Positions 18,248-62,114 are shown, counted from the first letter of the stretch. The stretch is 64,000 nt of DNA from Clostridia bacterium (GCA_017461985.1 JAFTSA010000007.1:2250-66249), one strand, 5' to 3'. The notes: generated by a model not told the origin, from the letters alone. Made by a program: numbers and translations.

Positions 18248-18707
18248 TGCTCCTAAACTTTTTCGTCATATTTCCATTTTTGTATGATTATCCTACCAAA
18301 ATCGGCTTGTCATTGTCAACCCCAAAACCCCCAAAAATTGATTAAAAATTTTTTTGCGTTTCAAAACCGAGCATCTAACCGTGTATTTCAAAAAAATAAT
18401 TGAAAACTAACAAAATTTTCAAAATTATGAAACTTATTCATTTTTTGCTCTTTTATGCAAAATCCACCGCAATAGAACACCTGTTTTCAAAAACTTGCAA
18501 AAAACGACTTTTTTCTTGATTTTATTTGCGGATTTTGTTGAAAATGTTGTTCTAACCTATTTAGTTTAATTGTTAAGCGTTTTGCTGGATTTTGTCGATA
18601 AATTCGTCTATTTTTGAGGACAAAACACACTGGATTTTCTCTGGTCTTTTGACTGGTTTTGGCGTCACTTTTTTGATTGATTTTTTTCGTTTTTCGTCTG
18701 CAGTTTT

Positions 18708-18912
18708 ATGCCTGTTTTTTGTTTTCTTCTGCTTTGCACCGTCATCATAGACGGAGTGGAATCAATCCTTTATGCAGCCCTGTGGCGGACGCAAGCCAAT
18801 GATAATTGCAGCCGTCCTCACGCTCTTGTTTATGCGCAGTATAAGGGCAAATAAAGAGGACAAGTTCCCTTCCCTTGACGAAGTTAAGAAAAACGCCCAA
18901 AACGCAAAATAA
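18708..18912 (+). pseudogene. Frameshifted 3' remnant of a MATE-like membrane protein gene
   Basis: Across two frameshifts it reads GVESILYAA[P]VADAS-MIIAAVLTLLFMRSI...*, followed by a terminator at 18932-18956. Confidence 0.4.
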
Positions 18913-18959
18913 GCCCTCTCAGGGCGAAAACAAAAGCAGCCAATAAGGTTGCTTTTTAT

Positions 18960-19220
18960 TTGTCTTGCAACGCAAGACAAGTGATATTGTGGCAGAGCCA
19001 CAGTTATATTCACTTCGTGAGTTATATGTCCTACGGACGTGATATTCACCTTCGGTGAGTTGTGGTTATGTGGCGTGACGTACACGACACGCCTATTTCA
19101 TCCTTAACTGCAAACATAGTGAGCAATATAACTGGCGAAGCCAATATAACTTCTTGCTTGCAAGAAATATAACTGCTCAAAGAGCAATATCACTTTGCAA
19201 AAATCTTGTATTTTTGCAAA
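18960..19220. repeat. Inverted hairpin/linker array element, empty copy
   Basis: Left arm: linkers GTKATAT x4 plus GTTGTGG separated by mini-hairpins. Right arm: CCTTAAC plus ATATMAC x4 separated by hairpins. No ORF between the arms. Confidence 0.85.
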
Positions 19221-19221
19221 A

Positions 19222-19252
19222 TAAAAAGGCAGTCCGAAGACTGCCTTTTTTA
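19222..19252 (-). terminator. Intrinsic terminator of the 766-aa lipoprotein gene
   Basis: AAAAAGGCAGTC-CGAA-GACTGCCTTTTT. Confidence 0.75.
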
Positions 19253-19266
19253 TTGTGTGTTGTTGC

Positions 19267-21567
19267 TTACAGTGCGATCACGAGAAGGTTGGTTGTGTCG
19301 ACTGCTGTGAATTCATATGCTTCACCTGCGGTTGCTTTTGCTGAAAGGCCGATTGTGATGCTGTCGCTGCCGTTTTTAACTTCGACGGTGAGTGATGCTT
19401 CGCCTTCATAGATTCTTGCGGTGATTGTTGCATTGCTTTCAAAGACTGATGCGATGACGCCTGCTTCATTTGCATTTGCCCAATCTGATTCGCCAACGAT
19501 ACCTGCAAACCATTCTTCTGCGGCTGCACCATTGTCTCTGTTTGCAATGTGAGTCGTGCCGTCTTCTCCTGTTGCCAATTCAACTTTTTCAAAGACACCA
19601 ACGATGCCCTTGCCGTCGCCGTAGCAGAATTCTTCGTTTGATTGAGGACCATTGTCCTTTGCGAAGAGGCTTGCGATTGCGTCACCTATGCCTTTAACTG
19701 TGATTGAAAGACCATCTTCACTTGTGAGGCTACCGTCGATGACTTCTTCGAGGAGATTGATGATTGCCATGATGCTGGGTGACCAGCTGATGGGTGTAAC
19801 TTCGTCATCTGCTGCTGCACCAAATGAAGGTGTGCCCTTGAAGAGACCTGTGAAGAGGTTGACGAGATCAACGCCGGTGAGTGCAACACCCTTGAAGTTT
19901 GTGTCAACTGTGAAGACGCTGGTGCCACCGTTGTGCTTGGTTGCGTATGCTGTCTTGACTGCATCTGCATCTGCAAAGTCGGTGGTGTACACTGCGTTTG
20001 CCACTGCAACTGCTGCTGCTTGGAGATTTGTATCTTCTGATGATGCAAGTGCGTTCACTGCCATGGGAAGGAGTTCTGCAAGTGCGAGCTTGACGTTATC
20101 GTCTGTTGCATCAAGTTCAAGTGCGAGAGTGCCTTTTGCATAGGTGATTCTGCCAAGTTGCTTGGTGCCGTCTGTGAGGACGAGTTCTGCTGCTGTGTTA
20201 TTGTTTTCAACGTTGACGAGGTCAACCATGCCGTTGAGTTCAAGTCTGAAGTCGCCTGCGAGGTCGTGACCATAGAGGACAAGTGCGCCTTCGGTGAGTT
20301 CAAGGTCAAGTGCAAGGTTGAAGTTGAATTCTTCTTCGTATTCGTCTTTGTCAATGCCGAATGTGTTGTTTGCTGCATTAACGCCAGTGATTGAAACTTC
20401 GTTGAGGCCGATTTCAATTGAGAGAGGATCTTCATTTGTGTCAATACCAACGAGGATTGCAAAGTTTTCGATTGCGCCTTCTGCATCGGTTTGATATTCA
20501 AATGCTACTTCGTTGAGGTTGGTGATCACGTCACCGAGACCCATAGGAAGACCTGTGAGCAAGACGCCAACTGAACCGATGATGCCGGTGGGGCAGAGGT
20601 CGATGCCTGCTTTGAAGGTGTGTGCTTCTTCATCTGCTTCTGCCTTGAAGAGGAGAGGACCAACTGCCTTCAAGAGGTCAAGGACGATTGCATCGCTTTC
20701 TGCGATTGCGTCGATGTCAAGTTCATAGTCATCCATGCCCATTGATTCTGCCAAACTTTCAAGGATGCCAGGAATTGCTGCGCCGATTGCTGATTCGGGG
20801 TCAAGGAGTGTCTTGAGGGTTTCGCCAAGGTCAATGCCGAGGAGACCGGTCAGTGAATTGATGAGGCCGTCAAGGTTCCAATCCTCGCCGAAGCCGTCGA
20901 TGATTGATTCAAGGAGACCAGAGATGCTCATGCCACCAAGGATTTCTTGACCAACAAAGTCGTTGATGGTTGCTGCCCAATCTTGGTTGAAACCGAAGTC
21001 AACACCAATCTTCAAACTTTGATCTGCCCAATCTGCATAGATGTAGTAAGGATCATTGAGGAAGAAGTAAAGTGTGAGCCAGTTGTCTGCATCGTCGTGA
21101 TTGTAGAGTTTGACTTTTGCTGCACTGTTTGCACCTGCGTTGGTTCTGTCAAGGACGATGCCAAGTTCGATGCCGAGGTCAACGAGGTTGTCGCCATCTT
21201 TGCCGATTGCAAGGTTCAAGCCAAGGTCAAGTGCGATGTCTTCGCCTGACTCAACCTCTTCTTGTCCGATGGTTGCTGCTGAATCCCAGAGGCCTTGGAA
21301 GAATTCTGCTGCGCCGTAACCTGTTTCGTCGCCGCCGTCATTTCCGCCATCGTTGCTGCCACCGCCACTGGTGCCCATGTCTGCGCCACAGTTGTCGCAT
21401 TTGCCGTCTTTGGGACGTCTGTCAACGTGACGTGTGCATGATGTGTCGCCACCACCATTGCCGCCACCGTCATTGTCGTTGTCTTTTTCGCCACATGCCA
21501 CAAGTGAGAAGCAAAGGACGAGGACCAACATCAAAACGATGAGTGTCTTGATACTAAATTTTTTCAT
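19267..21567 (-). CDS. Large acidic lipoprotein of unknown function
   Basis: Lipobox LVAC, G/D-rich linkers, C-x2-H...C-x2-C motif; GGAGG RBS. Confidence 0.8.
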   Translation of the reverse strand: MKKFSIKTLIVLMLVLVLCFSLVACGEKDNDNDGGGNGGGDTSCTRHVDRRPKDGKCDNCGADMGTSGGGSNDGGNDGGDETGYGAAEFFQGLWDSAATIGQEEVESGEDIALDLGLNLAIGKDGDNLVDLGIELGIVLDRTNAGANSAAKVKLYNHDDADNWLTLYFFLNDPYYIYADWADQSLKIGVDFGFNQDWAATINDFVGQEILGGMSISGLLESIIDGFGEDWNLDGLINSLTGLLGIDLGETLKTLLDPESAIGAAIPGILESLAESMGMDDYELDIDAIAESDAIVLDLLKAVGPLLFKAEADEEAHTFKAGIDLCPTGIIGSVGVLLTGLPMGLGDVITNLNEVAFEYQTDAEGAIENFAILVGIDTNEDPLSIEIGLNEVSITGVNAANNTFGIDKDEYEEEFNFNLALDLELTEGALVLYGHDLAGDFRLELNGMVDLVNVENNNTAAELVLTDGTKQLGRITYAKGTLALELDATDDNVKLALAELLPMAVNALASSEDTNLQAAAVAVANAVYTTDFADADAVKTAYATKHNGGTSVFTVDTNFKGVALTGVDLVNLFTGLFKGTPSFGAAADDEVTPISWSPSIMAIINLLEEVIDGSLTSEDGLSITVKGIGDAIASLFAKDNGPQSNEEFCYGDGKGIVGVFEKVELATGEDGTTHIANRDNGAAAEEWFAGIVGESDWANANEAGVIASVFESNATITARIYEGEASLTVEVKNGSDSITIGLSAKATAGEAYEFTAVDTTNLLVIAL

Positions 21568-21845
21568 AATTATCCTCCTATGAAAAACTTTGAGAGTATT
21601 TTTGTTTTGTTGATTTCTTTTGATGCTATTTCAAAACCACACTACCTATAAAACAAACGAGAGGGCGGTTTCGCCAACCAAACCCGAAAGTTTCCGATAA
21701 TAATGATTATGATTACATATATTATAGTATAGAAGATATTAAGTGTCAATAATCAAAATTTGCCAAATAACCAAGTTTTTTAGTAAACATAGTTCACAAA
21801 AAAGGCTCTTCATCAGTTATGACTGGACTTGTCAAATTTTGATCA

Positions 21846-21935
21846 GTTATATTTGTCTTCGACAAGTTATATTGTGGCACGCCACAGTTATATTGCCTTC
21901 GGCAGTTATATTTCTCTCTTTGAGAGAAGTTGCGG
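21846..21935 (+). repeat. Hairpin/linker array, left arm (GTTATAT x4 plus GTTGCGG)
   Basis: GTTATAT ttgtc-ttc-gacaa GTTATAT tgtggc-ac-gccaca GTTATAT tgcc-ttc-ggca GTTATAT ttctctc-ttt-gagagaa GTTGCGG. Confidence 0.9.
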
Positions 21936-22012
21936 ATTATTTTTCACATTTTATGTTTCTATAAATAAAAAACTCACTCCCCTGTTTGAGGATTGTGAGC
22001 TTTTCAATTTTT

Positions 22013-22369
22013 CTATTCAATTTCCGCTTTTGATGTTTTGCAGGCACTTATAAGCATTCTTCTTATAGTTCCACAATCAGCAACAAGTTTCTTATATTTT
22101 GCCTCTGCGATATAACCCGTTTCAAACATGAGTTCAAGCCAATATTCGCTTTCATAGCACTCTTTTAGTGCTATTTCTAACTTAGAAACAAAATCTGCCC
22201 CGCTTTGGGCGTATTGCGCCTCGCTCAAGTTTGCTCCTATGCTTGTTCCGGCGCGCAAAAGTTGACCTGTCAAGATATATTCTCTTTCTTGAGATTGTAC
22301 GTCTTTCACCAAAAAGATAATTGCTTTTGCAAATTCCTTTGCGCGTTCTCGTGTTGAAATTTCAGTCAT
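22013..22369 (-). CDS. Four helix bundle protein (23S rRNA intervening-sequence protein / Avd-like family)
   Basis: QLLRAGTSIGANLSEA...SGADFVSKLEIALKECYESEYWLEL signature, 118 aa. Confidence 0.92.
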   Translation of the reverse strand: MTEISTRERAKEFAKAIIFLVKDVQSQEREYILTGQLLRAGTSIGANLSEAQYAQSGADFVSKLEIALKECYESEYWLELMFETGYIAEAKYKKLVADCGTIRRMLISACKTSKAEIE

Positions 22370-22394
22370 TATTTTCCCTTCTTATCACTAATAA

Positions 22395-22475
22395 CCTTAA
22401 CTTGCCAAAGGCAAATATCACTTGCGGAGCAAATATAACTGCGAAGCAATATAACTCGCTGAAAGCGAATATAAC
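22395..22475 (-). repeat. Hairpin/linker array, right arm (inverted)
   Basis: On +: CCTTAAC ttgcc-aaa-ggcaa ATATCAC ttgc-gga-gcaa ATATAAC tgc-gaa-gca ATATAAC tcgct-gaa-agcga ATATAAC. Confidence 0.9.
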
Positions 22476-22481
22476 TGACTA

Positions 22482-23183
22482 TTAATAGCCACCACGGATT
22501 GAGAGGACTTCTCCTGTGATGTAGTCGGCGGAAAGCAAAAACATAACCGCTTCTGCAACCTCACTGGGTTTTCCAAGTCTGCCCATAGGGATTTCTTCCA
22601 CAAAGGCACGGAGTTCATCATCGGTGTAGGTCTTCATCATATCCGTGTCAATAGCTCCGGGAGCCACTGCATTGACGGTTATGCCCATAGGCGCAAGTTC
22701 CTTGGCAAGGGCTTTGGTGAGGCCTATGACGCCTGCCTTTGATGCGGAATAATGAGTTTCCATGCTAGCCCCGTCCGTGCCCCACATTGAGGACAGGTTG
22801 ACAATCCTGCCATATCCCTTTGAAATCATGCCGGGGACAACCTCCCTTGTCACAAAGAAAGTGCCGTCCAGATTGACACCTATCATACGATGCCAGTCCT
22901 CATCGGTTATGTCTTGGAAGAGTTTGTCTTGGGCTATGCCTGCATTGTTGACAAGGAGGTCAACTCCGCCCATATCCGCCTTGATTTTGGCAATCAATTC
23001 CTTCACCTGAGCGGAAGAGGACACGTCACATTGGTAGGCCTTTGCGCCCACCTCTTTTGCCAAATTTTCGGCCTTTTCCTTGTTGGTGACGTAGGTGAAA
23101 GCCACCCTATACTTGCCTACGGCAAGACGTACGATGGCCTCCCCTATCCCACGGCTTCCGCCAGTGATAAGAATTGTTTTCAT
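22482..23183 (-). CDS. SDR oxidoreductase, FabG/YmfI-like
   Basis: TGGSRGIG, NNAG, YSASK. Confidence 0.88.
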   Translation of the reverse strand: MKTILITGGSRGIGEAIVRLAVGKYRVAFTYVTNKEKAENLAKEVGAKAYQCDVSSSAQVKELIAKIKADMGGVDLLVNNAGIAQDKLFQDITDEDWHRMIGVNLDGTFFVTREVVPGMISKGYGRIVNLSSMWGTDGASMETHYSASKAGVIGLTKALAKELAPMGITVNAVAPGAIDTDMMKTYTDDELRAFVEEIPMGRLGKPSEVAEAVMFLLSADYITGEVLSIRGGY

Positions 23184-23184
23184 A

Positions 23185-24603
23185 TTATTCTGCTTTTTCT
23201 GCCTCTTCTTTTGCCGCCTTGTCTGCATCGTTCATGAAACCGAGCATTGTGGGTTCATCTGCGTCTGCAAGGTCTGCTGCGTAGAGATAGTTGTAGTTTT
23301 CGCTGTCAAAGAAGAACATTGTGCCGTCAACAAATTCAACGTTGAGCCAGTTGGTGACGATGCCTGCTTCGAGGACGACCTTTTCATTGGCGCTTGCATC
23401 AAGTTTTGCTGCGTAGAGTTTGCCACCAGTTGAATCAGTGTAGTACACTGTGCCGTCAAGGACGTATTGGATGGTGATTGCTCTACCGATGACAAGGTTT
23501 TCAGTTGTGTCTGCTTCTGCGGTTGTCACAAGATAGGTCTTGTTTGCGCTGGTTGACACAAGTGCGCCAGCATTGTAGCCGAGAGGATACACTGTTGACA
23601 GTGCTGTGCTCTTTGAAAGGTGCTTTTCAGTTGTGACGTCAAAGTCTCCGCCAAATGCAACTTTGTTGACAAAGAGGCCTCTGCCTTCTTCTTGGCTGTT
23701 GATGTAGTTTGCCTTGTTGTAGTAGAGGGTGACACCGCCATCTTCAACGACCATATCGATGAGGTTGAAACTGAAGACCTTGGTGGGGAAATAGTCAACG
23801 TAGTTTTCCTTTTCATTTTCTGCAAGATAGGTGAGTTTGTCAGCAAGGACTTTCTTGTCTGTGCCGTCGTACTTCACTGCGTTCAAGGTGTTGCAGAATT
23901 CATAGCTTTGGTCACCGGTGACTGTTTCGGTGTAGTAGACATAGTCACTTGCATAGTCCCAAAGCACTGTTTCAACGTTTTCAAGGAAGACACCGCCTGT
24001 GACGCCCTTTGCGTTGTCACTGCTCTTTGTTGTGTCCATACCGCTGAAATCGATATAGTTGACGGTGGTTGCGCCTGATGCCATGTAGAGGATTCTTGAA
24101 GGTGTAAAGAAATATCTGCTGCTACGGCTGTTGATGGTTGCGATGAGTTGAGTCACACTGCCGTCAATCTTTGTGCGCATAAAGTCGGTGTGGGTGGTTG
24201 ATGCAACACCGCTCTTGTCCATGTCGTTGTTGGGGGTTGCATAGTAAATCCATTCGCCGAAGATTGCAAAGCCGCCGTCTGCGTTTTGGTTGTACACTTG
24301 CTTGGGAACAACCACGACTGCATCTGAGTAAGTGCCGTCTGCGTTGAGTTTTGCTCTCACGATTGCGTTTTTGACGGGGGTGCCCCAGGTGTTGTCCACT
24401 GTGGTGTTGGTGTCATAACCATTGATGAAATAGACGTATTCGCCTTGCTTGACGTAGTATCCGCCATTTGATTCAACTGCTGCGTCGGGGTTTCCGCCGC
24501 CGATTGAATTCCATTCAAACTTGTTGCAACCGACGAGAACTGCGGTGAGGACTGCAACGAGAGCCACGATGGCGATGATGCTGACTAAATGTTTCTTGTT
24601 CAT
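23185..24603 (-). CDS. Lipoprotein, probable beta-propeller (DUF5050-like)
   Basis: Lipobox LVGC; repeated YVYF / WIYY / YVYY / VYYT strands. Confidence 0.7.
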   Translation of the reverse strand: MNKKHLVSIIAIVALVAVLTAVLVGCNKFEWNSIGGGNPDAAVESNGGYYVKQGEYVYFINGYDTNTTVDNTWGTPVKNAIVRAKLNADGTYSDAVVVVPKQVYNQNADGGFAIFGEWIYYATPNNDMDKSGVASTTHTDFMRTKIDGSVTQLIATINSRSSRYFFTPSRILYMASGATTVNYIDFSGMDTTKSSDNAKGVTGGVFLENVETVLWDYASDYVYYTETVTGDQSYEFCNTLNAVKYDGTDKKVLADKLTYLAENEKENYVDYFPTKVFSFNLIDMVVEDGGVTLYYNKANYINSQEEGRGLFVNKVAFGGDFDVTTEKHLSKSTALSTVYPLGYNAGALVSTSANKTYLVTTAEADTTENLVIGRAITIQYVLDGTVYYTDSTGGKLYAAKLDASANEKVVLEAGIVTNWLNVEFVDGTMFFFDSENYNYLYAADLADADEPTMLGFMNDADKAAKEEAEKAE

Positions 24604-41680: not shown

Positions 41681-42003
41681 ATGTCCCCCTTCCTCACGTG
41701 TTTCCCCCGTTTGCTATCCGCAAAACCCTTCGGGTGGGGAACTCGACGCGATTGACTTCGTAGCAATCGCTATTCCGTCGCTTTGCTCCTTACGGCTCTC
41801 GCACATTAAGCGGCGTCGCCTCATTATGCCACTTGTTGCGTTGGTGCAAAAAAAATCAGAGCGCACCCGCAACTTCGTACTCTCGTCTGGTGCGACGCGA
41901 TTGACGGCTTTGCCGTAGCAATACGCTCTTCCGTTCCTTACGGCGCTCCCTTCCTCGTCGCCGCTGCTCCTCGCGTTCCGTCACGCAACAAGTAAGTGCT
42001 TGT
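41681..42003. repeat. Structured dispersed repeat, copy 1 (MITE/REP-like or ncRNA)
   Basis: Long near-identical blocks shared with 61836-62114, with covarying stems. Confidence 0.85.
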
Positions 42004-42034
42004 ATAAGTACGCTTTTAATAGACCATACGTTTC

Positions 42035-49712: not shown

Positions 49713-50766
49713 ACGTATAACCATCACCCTAATCATCCTCGTTGTCATTGCATTGTCAACAACTCTTTTTGCTTGCGACAGCACCCCTGACTACACCAAC
49801 AACGGTCTGACCGTCAGTGGCAAATGTATCTATGACGGCGCACCACTTGAAGGTGTGAAAATTATCCTTGACTTTGAGGTTGTTTCCACAACCGACGAGG
49901 GTGGAGTATTCTCTGTTGACGGACTTGAAAAGGGTGACAAACTCACCTTTGAAAAGGATGGTTTTGTCTTCTATCCCAACACTTACAAGGTCAGCGGTGA
50001 CGTGTATGACTTGCGTGTTGAGGCATATCTTGACACCACCGTTGGCGCTCCCGATGACGACCAAAATGGGGACAACACTGGCGATAATTCAGGTGACAAT
50101 AGCGGTGAAAATTCTGGCAATAATGATAGCGAAAACACCGATGACAATGGCAGTGACGATGACCTTTCAGGTGGCACCGACACCGACGACACAACCACTG
50201 AAATAAAAACGTATGATTGCATAAACGCAGGTTTATCCTTTGAAAATGACAACATTAAACTTGTATTTTGCGTTGAAAAGGGATTTTCTTCTCTTTCTGT
50301 TTCAGTGTTCGCAGACCTCACTTCCTCATCAATAAACGTCACTGATGATATGAAAGTTGCCGAGTTTAATCTTGGTGAAAACACCGTTGTTCAATACGAA
50401 ATTGACGTGACGGACTTTGCAAAAGAGGAGTGTGTTTTCACCGTGTCACCTCGCAATGAAAAGGGTGAAAAAGGTGAAGAGGCAAGTGTCACGTTTATCC
50501 CTCAATCAACAGCAAAGGCAGTCACTATCACCCTTGACGGAAGCGTCATAAGGCTATACAATATTGACGTGTATGCAACCAACTATCTTGTCATCAATGA
50601 CGTGAATATGGGTGTTGTAAATGGTGACACTGTTAACCTCTCCGCCTACAAAACTCTAAGCGAGGGCGTTGTTTCAATCCGTATTCTTTCGGTGAAGGAA
50701 GGGTCGTTCCCTTCATATTCCAACACTATCAACGTTGAATTGCAGGTGCAAAATGACAATGACTGA
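49705..50766 (+). CDS. Hypothetical lipoprotein with carboxypeptidase-regulatory-like domain and D/N-rich linker
   Basis: Lipobox LFAC; GAPLEGVKI...TTDEGGVFSV. Confidence 0.7.
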   Translation: MNRRITITLIILVVIALSTTLFACDSTPDYTNNGLTVSGKCIYDGAPLEGVKIILDFEVVSTTDEGGVFSVDGLEKGDKLTFEKDGFVFYPNTYKVSGDVYDLRVEAYLDTTVGAPDDDQNGDNTGDNSGDNSGENSGNNDSENTDDNGSDDDLSGGTDTDDTTTEIKTYDCINAGLSFENDNIKLVFCVEKGFSSLSVSVFADLTSSSINVTDDMKVAEFNLGENTVVQYEIDVTDFAKEECVFTVSPRNEKGEKGEEASVTFIPQSTAKAVTITLDGSVIRLYNIDVYATNYLVINDVNMGVVNGDTVNLSAYKTLSEGVVSIRILSVKEGSFPSYSNTINVELQVQNDND

Positions 50767-61752: not shown

Positions 61753-61835
61753 AAATGCGCTAAATCGCGAATAGTATAAAAAGCACTCTATAATTGAGTG
61801 CTTTTTGTTTGGATAGTGCATATACACTTAAGAAT

Positions 61836-62114
61836 ATGTCCCCCTTCCTCACGTGTTTCCCCCTTCTGCCATTCGGCAGAGCCCTACGGGCAGGGCAACA
61901 CTCGGCTCTCGCACATTAAGCGGCGTCGCCTTATTATGCCACTTGTCGCTTTGGTGCAAAAAAAAAAACAGAGCGCACCAGCGACTGCGTACAAATTCTG
62001 GTGCGACGCGATCGACGGCTTTGCCGTAGCAATACGCTCTTCCGTTCCTTACGGCGCTCCCTTCCTCGTCGCCGCTGCTCCTCGCGTTCCGTCTTCGAAC
62101 AAGTGAGTGCTTGT
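61836..62114. repeat. Structured dispersed repeat, copy 2
   Basis: Homologous to 41681-42003, same orientation. Confidence 0.85.

Follow-up and report, generated by a model that had tools for sequence, protein, structure and literature searches.

What kind of element is the ladder of short linkers and hairpins that lies, with no gene of its own, between two genes of a Clostridia bacterium, and how is it related to a similar element nearby that does carry a gene? The window, that is, the whole stretch of DNA analysed here, is 64,000 nt long and corresponds to positions 2250-66249 of contig C5 of GCA_017461985.1 (Clostridia bacterium; G000 below), an assembly of 1.41 Mb in 10 contigs that is 98.5% complete. 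The initial annotation had taken the gene-less ladder for a non-autonomous, REPIN- or MITE-like member of the family to which the element at 21846-22475 belongs. This reading is supported in part; what it missed is that the arms match the RNA motif Gut-1 and that the cargo of the sister element is a PF05635 gene, which ties the element to the intervening sequences (IVSs) of rRNA. The answer proposed here, with a probability of roughly 0.6, is that 18981-19193 is a selfish repeat that resembles an IVS, has no gene and is kin to elements carrying PF05635 genes.

Anatomy of the ladder and of its sister element

The ladder described in the initial annotation is present base for base, in both arms and in the 36-nt core. 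The extra hairpin reported outside each arm is also there, and terminator-like hairpins lie where flanking terminators had been claimed.

18932-18956, plus strand: terminator-like hairpin to the left of the element, after a frameshifted gene remnant
18960-18980: extra outer hairpin with an 8-bp stem and no linker on its outer side
18981-19065, plus strand: arm A, five 7-nt linkers and four hairpins; Gut-1 match on the plus strand, 40.9 bits
18981-18987, 19003-19009 and 19021-19027: linkers 1 to 3 of arm A, GTGATAT, GTTATAT and GTTATAT
19039-19045 and 19059-19065: linkers 4 and 5 of arm A, GTGATAT and GTTGTGG
19066-19101: core of 36 nt, with the hairpin GGCGTG (19072-19077) / CACGCC (19088-19093)
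19102-19193, minus strand: arm B, five linkers and four hairpins; Gut-1 match reading inward on the minus strand, 32.6-32.7 bits
19102-19108: first linker of arm B, CCTTAAC
19126-19132, 19144-19150 and 19167-19173: three linkers of arm B, each ATATAAC
19187-19193: last linker of arm B, ATATCAC
19194-19220: extra outer hairpin on the right side
19223-19250: terminator-like hairpin flanked by an A-run and a T-run, at the 3' end of the minus-strand gene 19267-21567

The hairpins between the linkers are rich in GC and measure 15, 11, 11 and 13 nt in arm A, and 17, 11, 16 and 13 nt in arm B. Both arms face inward, and the short core between them is asymmetric. No ORF is found in 18981-19193, whose core leaves just those 36 nt. 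The element is located between protein-coding genes and is not inserted in a 23S rRNA helix (9, 25 or 45); its left neighbour survives as the frameshifted remnant only, and the gene on its right encodes a lipoprotein-like product with no Pfam match. In the window, GTTATAT-N9-20-GTTATAT has 8 matches, all of them within 18981-19193 or 21846-22475, and none of 100 shuffles of the window gave any. Folded as RNA, 18960-19220 has a z of -7.4, both strands being alike.

The sister element, 630 nt long, is located 2.7 kb from the gene-less one.

21846-21935, plus strand: arm A, GTTATAT four times and GTTGCGG
22013-22369, minus strand: cargo gene of PF05635 (23S_rRNA_IVP), 118 aa, E 2.6e-27
22395-22475, minus strand: arm B, CCTTAAC, ATATCAC and ATATAAC three times

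A gap of 6 nt separates the sister's arm B from the stop codon of an SDR gene (22482-23228). The cargo encodes a four-helix-bundle protein, whose nearest solved relative is 2RLD (E 8.5e-29), a single PDB entry in which that sequence is present as five chains. The inner linkers of the sister, GTTGCGG and CCTTAAC, do match those of the gene-less element as had been stated, and since linkers, inner linkers, number of rungs and arm types are all alike, the claim of a common family holds.

A repeat family whose arms match Gut-1

How many such elements does this genome have? A genome-wide count, which the initial annotation had proposed, gives seven complete two-arm elements and about 11 solo arms, with 24 arms of the Gut-1 type in all of the 1.41 Mb. 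The complete copies, numbered on their contigs, are as follows.

C2, 135747-135925
C3, 65556-65748
C4, 50010-50192
C5, 21230-21442: the gene-less element under study
C5, 24095-24724: the gene-carrying sister
C5, 145803-145988
C10, 36164-36348

The family thus occurs in G000 both with and without a PF05635 gene, and the idea that the architecture can exist without the gene is borne out. Read inward, the arms fall into two types, A and B, each with characteristic hairpins, and in both types the penultimate linker is usually GTGATAT and the last one GTTGNGG. The shortest cores among the G000 copies are of 12 nt.

In a search of Rfam in E-value mode, every arm matches Gut-1 (RF01706), invariably reading inward. 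At E <= 0.01 there are 24 matches in G000, of which four exceed the cut-off of 50 bits (51.0-56.2 bits), and all except one at C3 18766-18831 sit at arms already identified. Arm A of the gene-less element scores 40.9 bits (E between about 1e-6 and 1e-5 across searches, 7.6e-7 when its own genome is searched) and arm B 32.6-32.7 bits (about 1e-4 to 1e-3, and 9e-5 in its own genome). The gene-less element therefore belongs to a large family whose arms match Gut-1, both arms of this copy falling below the curated gathering score of 50 bits; because of these scores, 40.9 and 32.7 bits, a scan of the window in gathering mode gave no match. The arms align over their full length with model positions 1-77, and the structure line of the model fits the hairpins. 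The model itself consists of three hairpins with loops of the C-UUC-G type and a conserved 7-nt linker, to which the arms align end to end; its linker is GUGAAAU, in contrast to GUUAUAU or GUGAUAU in the arms of G000.

Gut-1 was described as a likely non-coding RNA of the human gut, with no function and 'found only in environmental sequences', in the account of the motif by Weinberg et al. (2010, Genome Biol 11:R31, PMC2864571). One further paper was found to mention it, as a folding benchmark. The habitat agrees: the RNA runs that contain sequence of the window are gut metagenomes. However, while Rfam treats Gut-1 as a stand-alone sRNA, in G000 it is one arm of a two-arm, multi-copy DNA repeat tied to PF05635, and Gut-1 matches in gut metagenomes are probably repeat arms rather than sRNA genes.

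Is the family confined to this genome? Among 41 relatives, the linker pattern was found in seven genomes including G000, and a reversed-pattern control in two. Six of the seven are ladder-like, namely G000, G001, G002, G004 and G008, which belong to one genus, and G012 of the same family; the linker is constant and the hairpins differ in each of the five relatives. The seventh, G015, has a plain repeat without hairpins, and no PF05635. A wider scan with one genome per species gave at least 120 loci, and among the matches listed, 71 of 120 have at least two units of linker plus hairpin as counted by a parser, a handful of them being marginal. Ladder loci among the matches listed are mostly from Clostridia MAGs labelled Acutalibacteraceae, Ruminococcus, Christensenellaceae and Oscillospiraceae, and their commonest form is a two-arm unit of about 170-175 nt with four rungs per side. 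In Clostridia, such two-arm units have a conserved asymmetric core, roughly GTTnnGG..CGAATATA. Three contigs labelled Akkermansia (L014, L050 and L075, again among the matches listed) carry ladders, and their hairpins are GC-rich as the host would predict. With the Gut-1 model of Rfam, matches were found in 31 of 151 genomes of the class at E <= 1e-4, 21 above the cut-off, often as adjacent convergent pairs. A locus labelled Bacteroidaceae (L037) was considered as a further phylum and set aside; its PF05635 protein does not differ from the one in G004, which belongs to the same genus as the window, and the locus is therefore not counted. A blastn search of a plasmid collection with the element had no match, a scan of viral contigs gave at least 120 loci, with four marginal AT-rich or identical-spacer repeats and no convincing ladder among the matches listed, and a literature search on the 7-mer linkers returned nothing relevant.

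What is kept constant in such arms? Of 443 inter-linker segments from 166 arrays, 338 reach at least 60% symmetric Watson-Crick pairing, and the segments rejected below this value are mostly unrelated tandem repeats caught by the pattern. The 231 distinct hairpins differ in sequence, yet 1185 of their 1238 stem positions (95.7%) are Watson-Crick pairs; thus the hairpins are kept as structure and the linker as sequence. Wobble is rare in the stems and shows no strand bias (GT+TG 12 versus AC+CA 16). Such a near-absence of wobble pairs is unusual for a selected RNA and speaks against a simple RNA story. The loops, read inward in both arms, are TTC 38 times and TAC, TGC and TTT 18 times each, and their complements are almost missing (GAA once, GTA and GCA never), so that the loops are mirror-symmetric between the arms, with T..C inward and G..A outward. 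Since the asymmetry points inward in both arms, the favoured loop strand is opposite in the two, and this is left unexplained by a single transcript covering both arms. Seen from the outward strand, the loops take the form GNA or GNNA with a closing C-G pair, and GCGAAGC is one of the sequences that result. Loops of these types closed by C-G are stable, especially in DNA, and GCGAAGC is an unusually stable DNA mini-hairpin.

Do the two arms also pair with each other? Complementary linkers were found in the two arms for every linker type examined, but this alone is uninformative, because inverted repeats show it for any reason. A more demanding comparison looks at position 3 of the type-1 linker, which is either T or G, in 39 two-arm elements; 6 of 45 rows (L013 twice, L054, L074, L115 and L123) were left out as non-ladder repeats or for large gaps. 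The third bases agree in register at 70 of 145 rungs (48%), against 52 +/- 5% with shuffled partner arms; in G000 alone they agree at 20 of 28 rungs. The in-register covariation between left and right linkers, for which the initial annotation had called, is hence absent, and with it the compensatory argument for a four-way-junction ladder. In many Clostridia, one arm has GTTATAT throughout and the other GTGATAT throughout, so that every rung is mismatched (U-C or G-A) and the zipped rod may therefore not form there. As for the outermost linkers of the gene-less element, GTGATAT and ATATCAC, they do pair perfectly as had been noticed, but to see a compensatory change in them was too much: rung 4 sets GTGATAT against ATATAAC with a mismatch, and the outer pair is best read as coincidence. 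Each rung is complementary at 5-7 of 7 positions if G-U is counted, and no in-register compensation appears. For RNA, the ideal ladder of the gene-less element has an energy of -60.0 kcal/mol, the hairpins alone -45.2 and the minimum-energy fold -74.1; the ladder is thus 14.8 kcal/mol better than the hairpins alone, yet it differs from the minimum-energy fold. With DNA parameters the corresponding values are -31.7, -28.3 and -37.5, and the ladder gains 3.4 kcal/mol. By the nearest-neighbour model a zipped ladder would be feasible, and covariation lends it no support.

Heptamer arms around PF05635 genes

Is the PF05635 gene of the sister element a casual passenger? G000 has a second gene of this family (C2, 132549-132839), and a full two-arm ladder stands before it; the linker there is of another type, GTATGTAAT / ATTnCATA (type 2), and this ladder is present in a single copy. 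PF05635 is found in 11 genomes among the 41 relatives, in all 6 of those with the type-1 ladder versus 5 of the 35 others, genomes that are kin and not independent samples. A two-arm ladder either brackets the gene or is found immediately 5' of it at 12 of 18 PF05635 loci in the relatives, and these 12 represent 11 linker types, two loci being orthologues; the linkers at PF05635 loci are GTGAAAT, GTGAATT, TGAAT, GAAAT, GATAT, AATTATG, CTTCACT/GTGAAG, GTGATGT, GTATGTAAT and GTTATAT. At the remaining six the inverted arms are plain and lack hairpins; two of these loci lie within 23S rRNA as classical IVSs, a form that occurs in the same-order genome G025 at loci L180 and L186. In a tree of the proteins, PF05635 genes cluster by linker type (support 95/97 for the GTTATAT clade, 96/95 for GTGAATT with TGAAT). 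Among ladder loci of public genomes, just five have a PF05635 gene nearby and most copies are gene-less; the ladder is directly 5' of the gene at L080 and L129, and the Akkermansia-labelled array L014 also carries one, whose placement in the tree is unsupported.

The survey of arms was then widened to 28 PF05635 loci from a sample of 300 further Bacillota genomes. Flanking inverted arms scoring at least 26 were found at 25 of the 28, against 2 of 27 displaced control windows. On visual inspection they consist of plain 7-nt units in tandem, a few having a period of 8 or 11. With plain tandem heptamers around PF05635 genes at hand, the linker of the ladder can be read as the heptamer unit of IVS-type arms, and Gut-1 would then be, as far as the sequences tell, such an arm with hairpins inserted between its heptamers.

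The proposed course of events is as follows. Inverted arms of heptamer repeats bracket PF05635 genes, and the family would be their laddered form, which is the ground for regarding the element as an IVS-like selfish repeat outside rRNA, and the copy at 18981-19193 may either have lost its PF05635 gene or never had one. In a transcript that runs from a flanking gene through the element, every hairpin would be expected to form. If the whole element came to lie on one RNA, the complementary heptamers could zip the arms into a rod like the stem of an rRNA IVS, and enzymes that process double-strand RNA would probably act on such a rod. The PF05635 gene is a candidate trans factor for the spread of the family, because it is the only gene linked to it.

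How does the element compare with known systems? The IVSs of 23S rRNA in Leptospira and Coxiella are considered selfish, have a sporadic distribution and include forms without an ORF, according to the account of Warrier et al. (2016, PMC4990558). Common to both is a PF05635 gene bracketed by complementary arms, which in the ladder might form a long stem as well. The elements of G000 differ in that they are intergenic, dispersed and mostly gene-less, and in that their stem is split into 7-bp rungs by pairs of hairpins. It is to be noted that the G000 assembly holds no 23S rRNA, so that copies borne by rRNA may exist besides. Typical of rRNA IVSs is that RNase III removes them from the transcript. 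In the sources consulted, PF05635 proteins are described as kin of Avd, the accessory protein of DGRs, and as lacking a known function. With REP/REPIN, BOX and Correia elements, the ladder shares that it is short, non-coding, palindromic, intergenic, multi-copy and mostly located at gene 3' ends, and with BOX also a modular build, rungs being swapped between copies. In contrast to them, the ladder comes without RAYT or target duplication, conserves its linker and not its hairpins, and has as its only associated gene one for a four-helix-bundle protein. Closer in unit length are GGGAATC heptamer repeats of Xanthomonas, which often occur as convergent inverted pairs and are reported by Rehm et al. 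(2015, PMC4692102) to have no known function, the unexplained heptamer repeats of Nostoc mentioned in the same paper, and the TAACTGA repeats of Beggiatoaceae, Cyanobacteria and Bacteroidetes (MacGregor, 2015, PMC4679880). These, too, are tandem 7-nt intergenic units, and the plain PF05635 arms of Bacillota look like them; unlike the ladder they have no intercalated hairpins, and no link to PF05635 is mentioned in the portions of these two papers used here.

Since 2010 Gut-1 has stayed an orphan RNA motif; no function has been assigned since the early 1990s to the proteins of 23S rRNA IVSs; and several phyla have intergenic heptamer repeats that await an explanation. The present comparison suggests that the three are faces of one kind of selfish element, with or without hairpins and with or without a PF05635 gene. 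A literature search found no paper that links Gut-1, heptamer repeats and PF05635.

Turnover at orthologous sites and alternative readings

The presence of the ladder varies at orthologous sites of sister species, which lends the initial annotation some support. At the site of the gene-less element, G002 has an element with a longer core, in which an arm with ATTTCAT linkers is nested; the 36-nt core of the window ends in ATTTCAT, a remnant of such a longer core. At the same site, G006 has undergone a deletion bounded by GGCGAA microhomologies and retains only the two outer rungs of arm B. Both G002 and G006 lack the 630-nt sister element and have a terminator there; the C5-145.8k copy is absent from G006, and the C10 copy from G006, G010 and G011. 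The C2 site is empty in G011 (a spacer of 53 nt), is occupied in G002 by a 260-nt repeat and one rung, and in G003 by a PF05635 gene with GTGAATT arms. Gain, loss and decay are shown at these sites; they could, however, reflect recombination and the decay of old copies, not transposition. At the junctions compared, inserted copies replace other small hairpin modules.

One alternative starts from the single arm and not from the pair: each arm would be an independent functional RNA, a 3' trailer whose array of hairpins blocks 3' exonucleases or backs up termination, and the palindrome would merely come from two convergent genes with one arm each. We regard this as unlikely. It is true that the nearest long outer ORF reads into the arm in 20 of the 24 arms of G000 and in 11 of 11 solo arms; this bias is uninformative, because a symmetric element that settles at 3' ends shows it automatically. 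The copy on C10 lies between a stop codon and the terminator of that gene and the C2 copy between co-directional genes, as would suit a trailer, and the one at C4 75374 is located in a 5' leader; the arms of the gene-less element, however, are beyond the terminators. The loop asymmetry, which tracks the inward strand in both arms, also suits a trailer, and the almost complete lack of G-U pairs does not. For Gut-1, the first of the three yes/no columns of Table 1 in PMC2864571, which we take to be the 'RNA?' rating, has 'Y' (certainly). Contigs from gut metatranscriptomes cover both elements of the window, but they are assembled contigs without strand, ends or level, and DNA carry-over may account for them. 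One metatranscriptome contig joins 18953 to 19211 and another 21762 to 22501, and so they skip the gene-less and the sister element, respectively, though other letters may stand between in either case. Above all, a trailer leaves unexplained the stereotyped two-arm unit of 4+1 and 1+4 linkers, the conserved asymmetric core and the link to PF05635.

Or do the heptamers serve the protein itself? They might be a putative binding array, on RNA or DNA, for an oligomeric PF05635 protein, with the hairpins as spacers. A ladder located 5' of the gene would on this view serve in autoregulation or processing, and copies without the gene would provide additional sites or act as decoys. That one heptamer serves for all rungs of an element, that different PF05635 genes have different heptamers and that the heptamer type tracks the protein clade would all fit, as would the position of the ladder, often about 25-90 nt from the start codon with no space for a promoter between. 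Plain heptamer arrays flank the gene across Bacillota, and the 2RLD entry holds five chains. On the other hand, co-inheritance of gene and arm yields the same tree pattern with no recognition at all, and the type-2 ladder is single-copy. This account moreover overlaps the IVS-like reading and is no clean alternative to it; we consider it doubtful. A broader version, in which ladder arms and plain heptamer arrays alike are putative cognate recognition arrays by which an oligomeric, Avd-like PF05635 protein processes or mobilises the elements, is likewise rather improbable. If it were true, the IVS protein family, Gut-1 and the intergenic heptamer repeats would receive a function together.

Mobilisation as single-stranded DNA by an HUH (RAYT) enzyme, in the manner of a REPIN or an IS200/IS605-type element, is very improbable. 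A short, palindromic, intergenic and multi-copy element would suit it, as would the outward-strand GNA/GNNA loops closed by C-G and a scarcity of wobble pairs that is suited to DNA. But Y1_Tnp (HUH/RAYT, PF01797) has 0 matches in the 98.5%-complete G000, in a search whose control matched 6 of 14 reference genomes, and reverse transcriptase (RVT_1) is likewise absent from this genome, so that neither of these two partners which the initial annotation had thought might co-occur is there. The arms are mirror-symmetric, whereas the ends of IS200/IS605 lie on one strand; a REP family conserves the hairpin sequence, whereas the ladder conserves the linker and varies the hairpins; and pairing of the arms adds so little to the hairpins under DNA parameters. 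The label given at first therefore stands in part for its MITE-like half, a multi-copy and gene-less element, and is unsupported for its REPIN half. Just as improbable as a RAYT substrate is a classical MITE in the strict sense, which would stem by deletion from a DDE-type transposon, have terminal inverted repeats and move by cut-and-paste. The ladder recalls one in that it is small, has inverted arms and exists in many copies that are polymorphic for presence/absence, and in G002 the flanks of two ladder sites are on different contigs, synteny breaking exactly at those sites. But where junctions were compared with orthologous sites, whether empty or holding something else, no target-site duplication was found, and the only coding relative carries the 118-aa four-helix-bundle gene and no transposase. 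Coding relatives of the IVS-like repeat carry PF05635 only, the genome-wide search having covered RVT_1 and Y1_Tnp only.

A few minor points on the linkers may be added. A terminator array, in which U-rich GUUAUAU follows each hairpin, was considered and set aside, since the other linker types are not U-rich. Promoter-like GTGATA-N16/18-TATATT is found inside both arms, at 2 sites versus 1.2 +/- 1.2 in shuffles, which is not significant. Linkers of the form GTTnnnn/nnnnAAC presumably resemble the core sites of integron attC. Finally, with regard to recognition arrays, an arm has about five heptamers and 2RLD five chains, and on that reading the heptamers would diversify with the protein.

Inverted arms around PF05635 genes

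Among 300 Bacillota genomes, inverted arms bracket 25 of the 28 genes for PF05635 proteins, the 23S rRNA intervening-sequence (Avd-like) family (loci L199-L228), and only two of 27 displaced controls scored as high as the arms flanking these genes. The arms consist of tandem 7-nt repeats, some of them 8 or 11 nt, with the period judged by eye. The genome of the window, G000, has a second PF05635 gene, and between this gene and a tRNA gene lies a complete two-arm ladder. Its linkers, GTATGTAAT / ATTnCATA, differ from those of the gene-less ladder at 18981-19193, and this type has one copy in G000. In two species a stretch of about 130 nt is duplicated in tandem downstream of a PF05635 gene; every duplicate has a terminator at its end, and Rfam gave no convincing match.

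Features around PF05635 genes
G000 C2 132357-132480 (locus L138): two-arm ladder, linkers GTATGTAAT / ATTnCATA
G000 C2 about 132950-133200 (L138): ~130-nt tandem duplicates
G001, downstream region of L181: ~130-nt tandem duplicates

L037 lies on a contig whose label assigns it to a Bacteroidaceae MAG, and the PF05635 protein of L037 is identical to that of L174 in G004, which belongs to the genus of the window; the taxonomic label or the binning of L037 is doubtful.

A second repeat family within and outside ladders

G000 has a second repeat family with a unit of about 260 nt, which is also present in its relative G002. Besides the copies listed here it occurs at no fewer than 25 further places, and an Rfam search gave no match at E <= 1. 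Often this repeat has the '..GAATAT' of the ladder core directly on one side and arm B directly on the other; it is found without any ladder as well.

Copies of the ~260-nt repeat
Window about 41793-42013
Window about 61830-62111
G000 C5 101936-102213

Solo arm, flanks and other small modules

A solo arm, a single ladder arm lacking its partner, lies in a 5' leader just downstream of a good TATAAT-type promoter; the membrane protein encoded behind it looks like a transporter. To the left of the gene-less ladder, only a frameshifted C-terminal remnant of a gene remains, and the coding sequence at the orthologous site is longer in G002 and G006. At each of two ladder sites the two flanks fall on separate contigs in G002, so that rearrangement or assembly breaks coincide with the repeats.

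A third small repeat family opens with a GCGCTA..TAGCGC hairpin immediately behind stop codons, and runs on into a longer module, which G011 has in tandem copies. Many terminator stems of the genus, across G000, G002 and G006, share a CACTC..GAGTG core, as if they were another dispersed module.

Other features
G000 C4 75374-75525: solo arm, 5' leader of the gene for a 509-aa membrane protein
Window 18250-18912, + strand: frameshifted gene remnant
G002 C7/C20 and C20/C14, versus G000 C5 145.8k and C10 36.2k: split flanks
G000 C4 about 49990-50010: third repeat family
G000 C5 about 145760-145790: third repeat family
Orthologues in G002, G006 and G011 (L162, L163, L165): third repeat family
Window 19223-50; L153-L155, L163, L166, L167: examples of CACTC..GAGTG-core terminators
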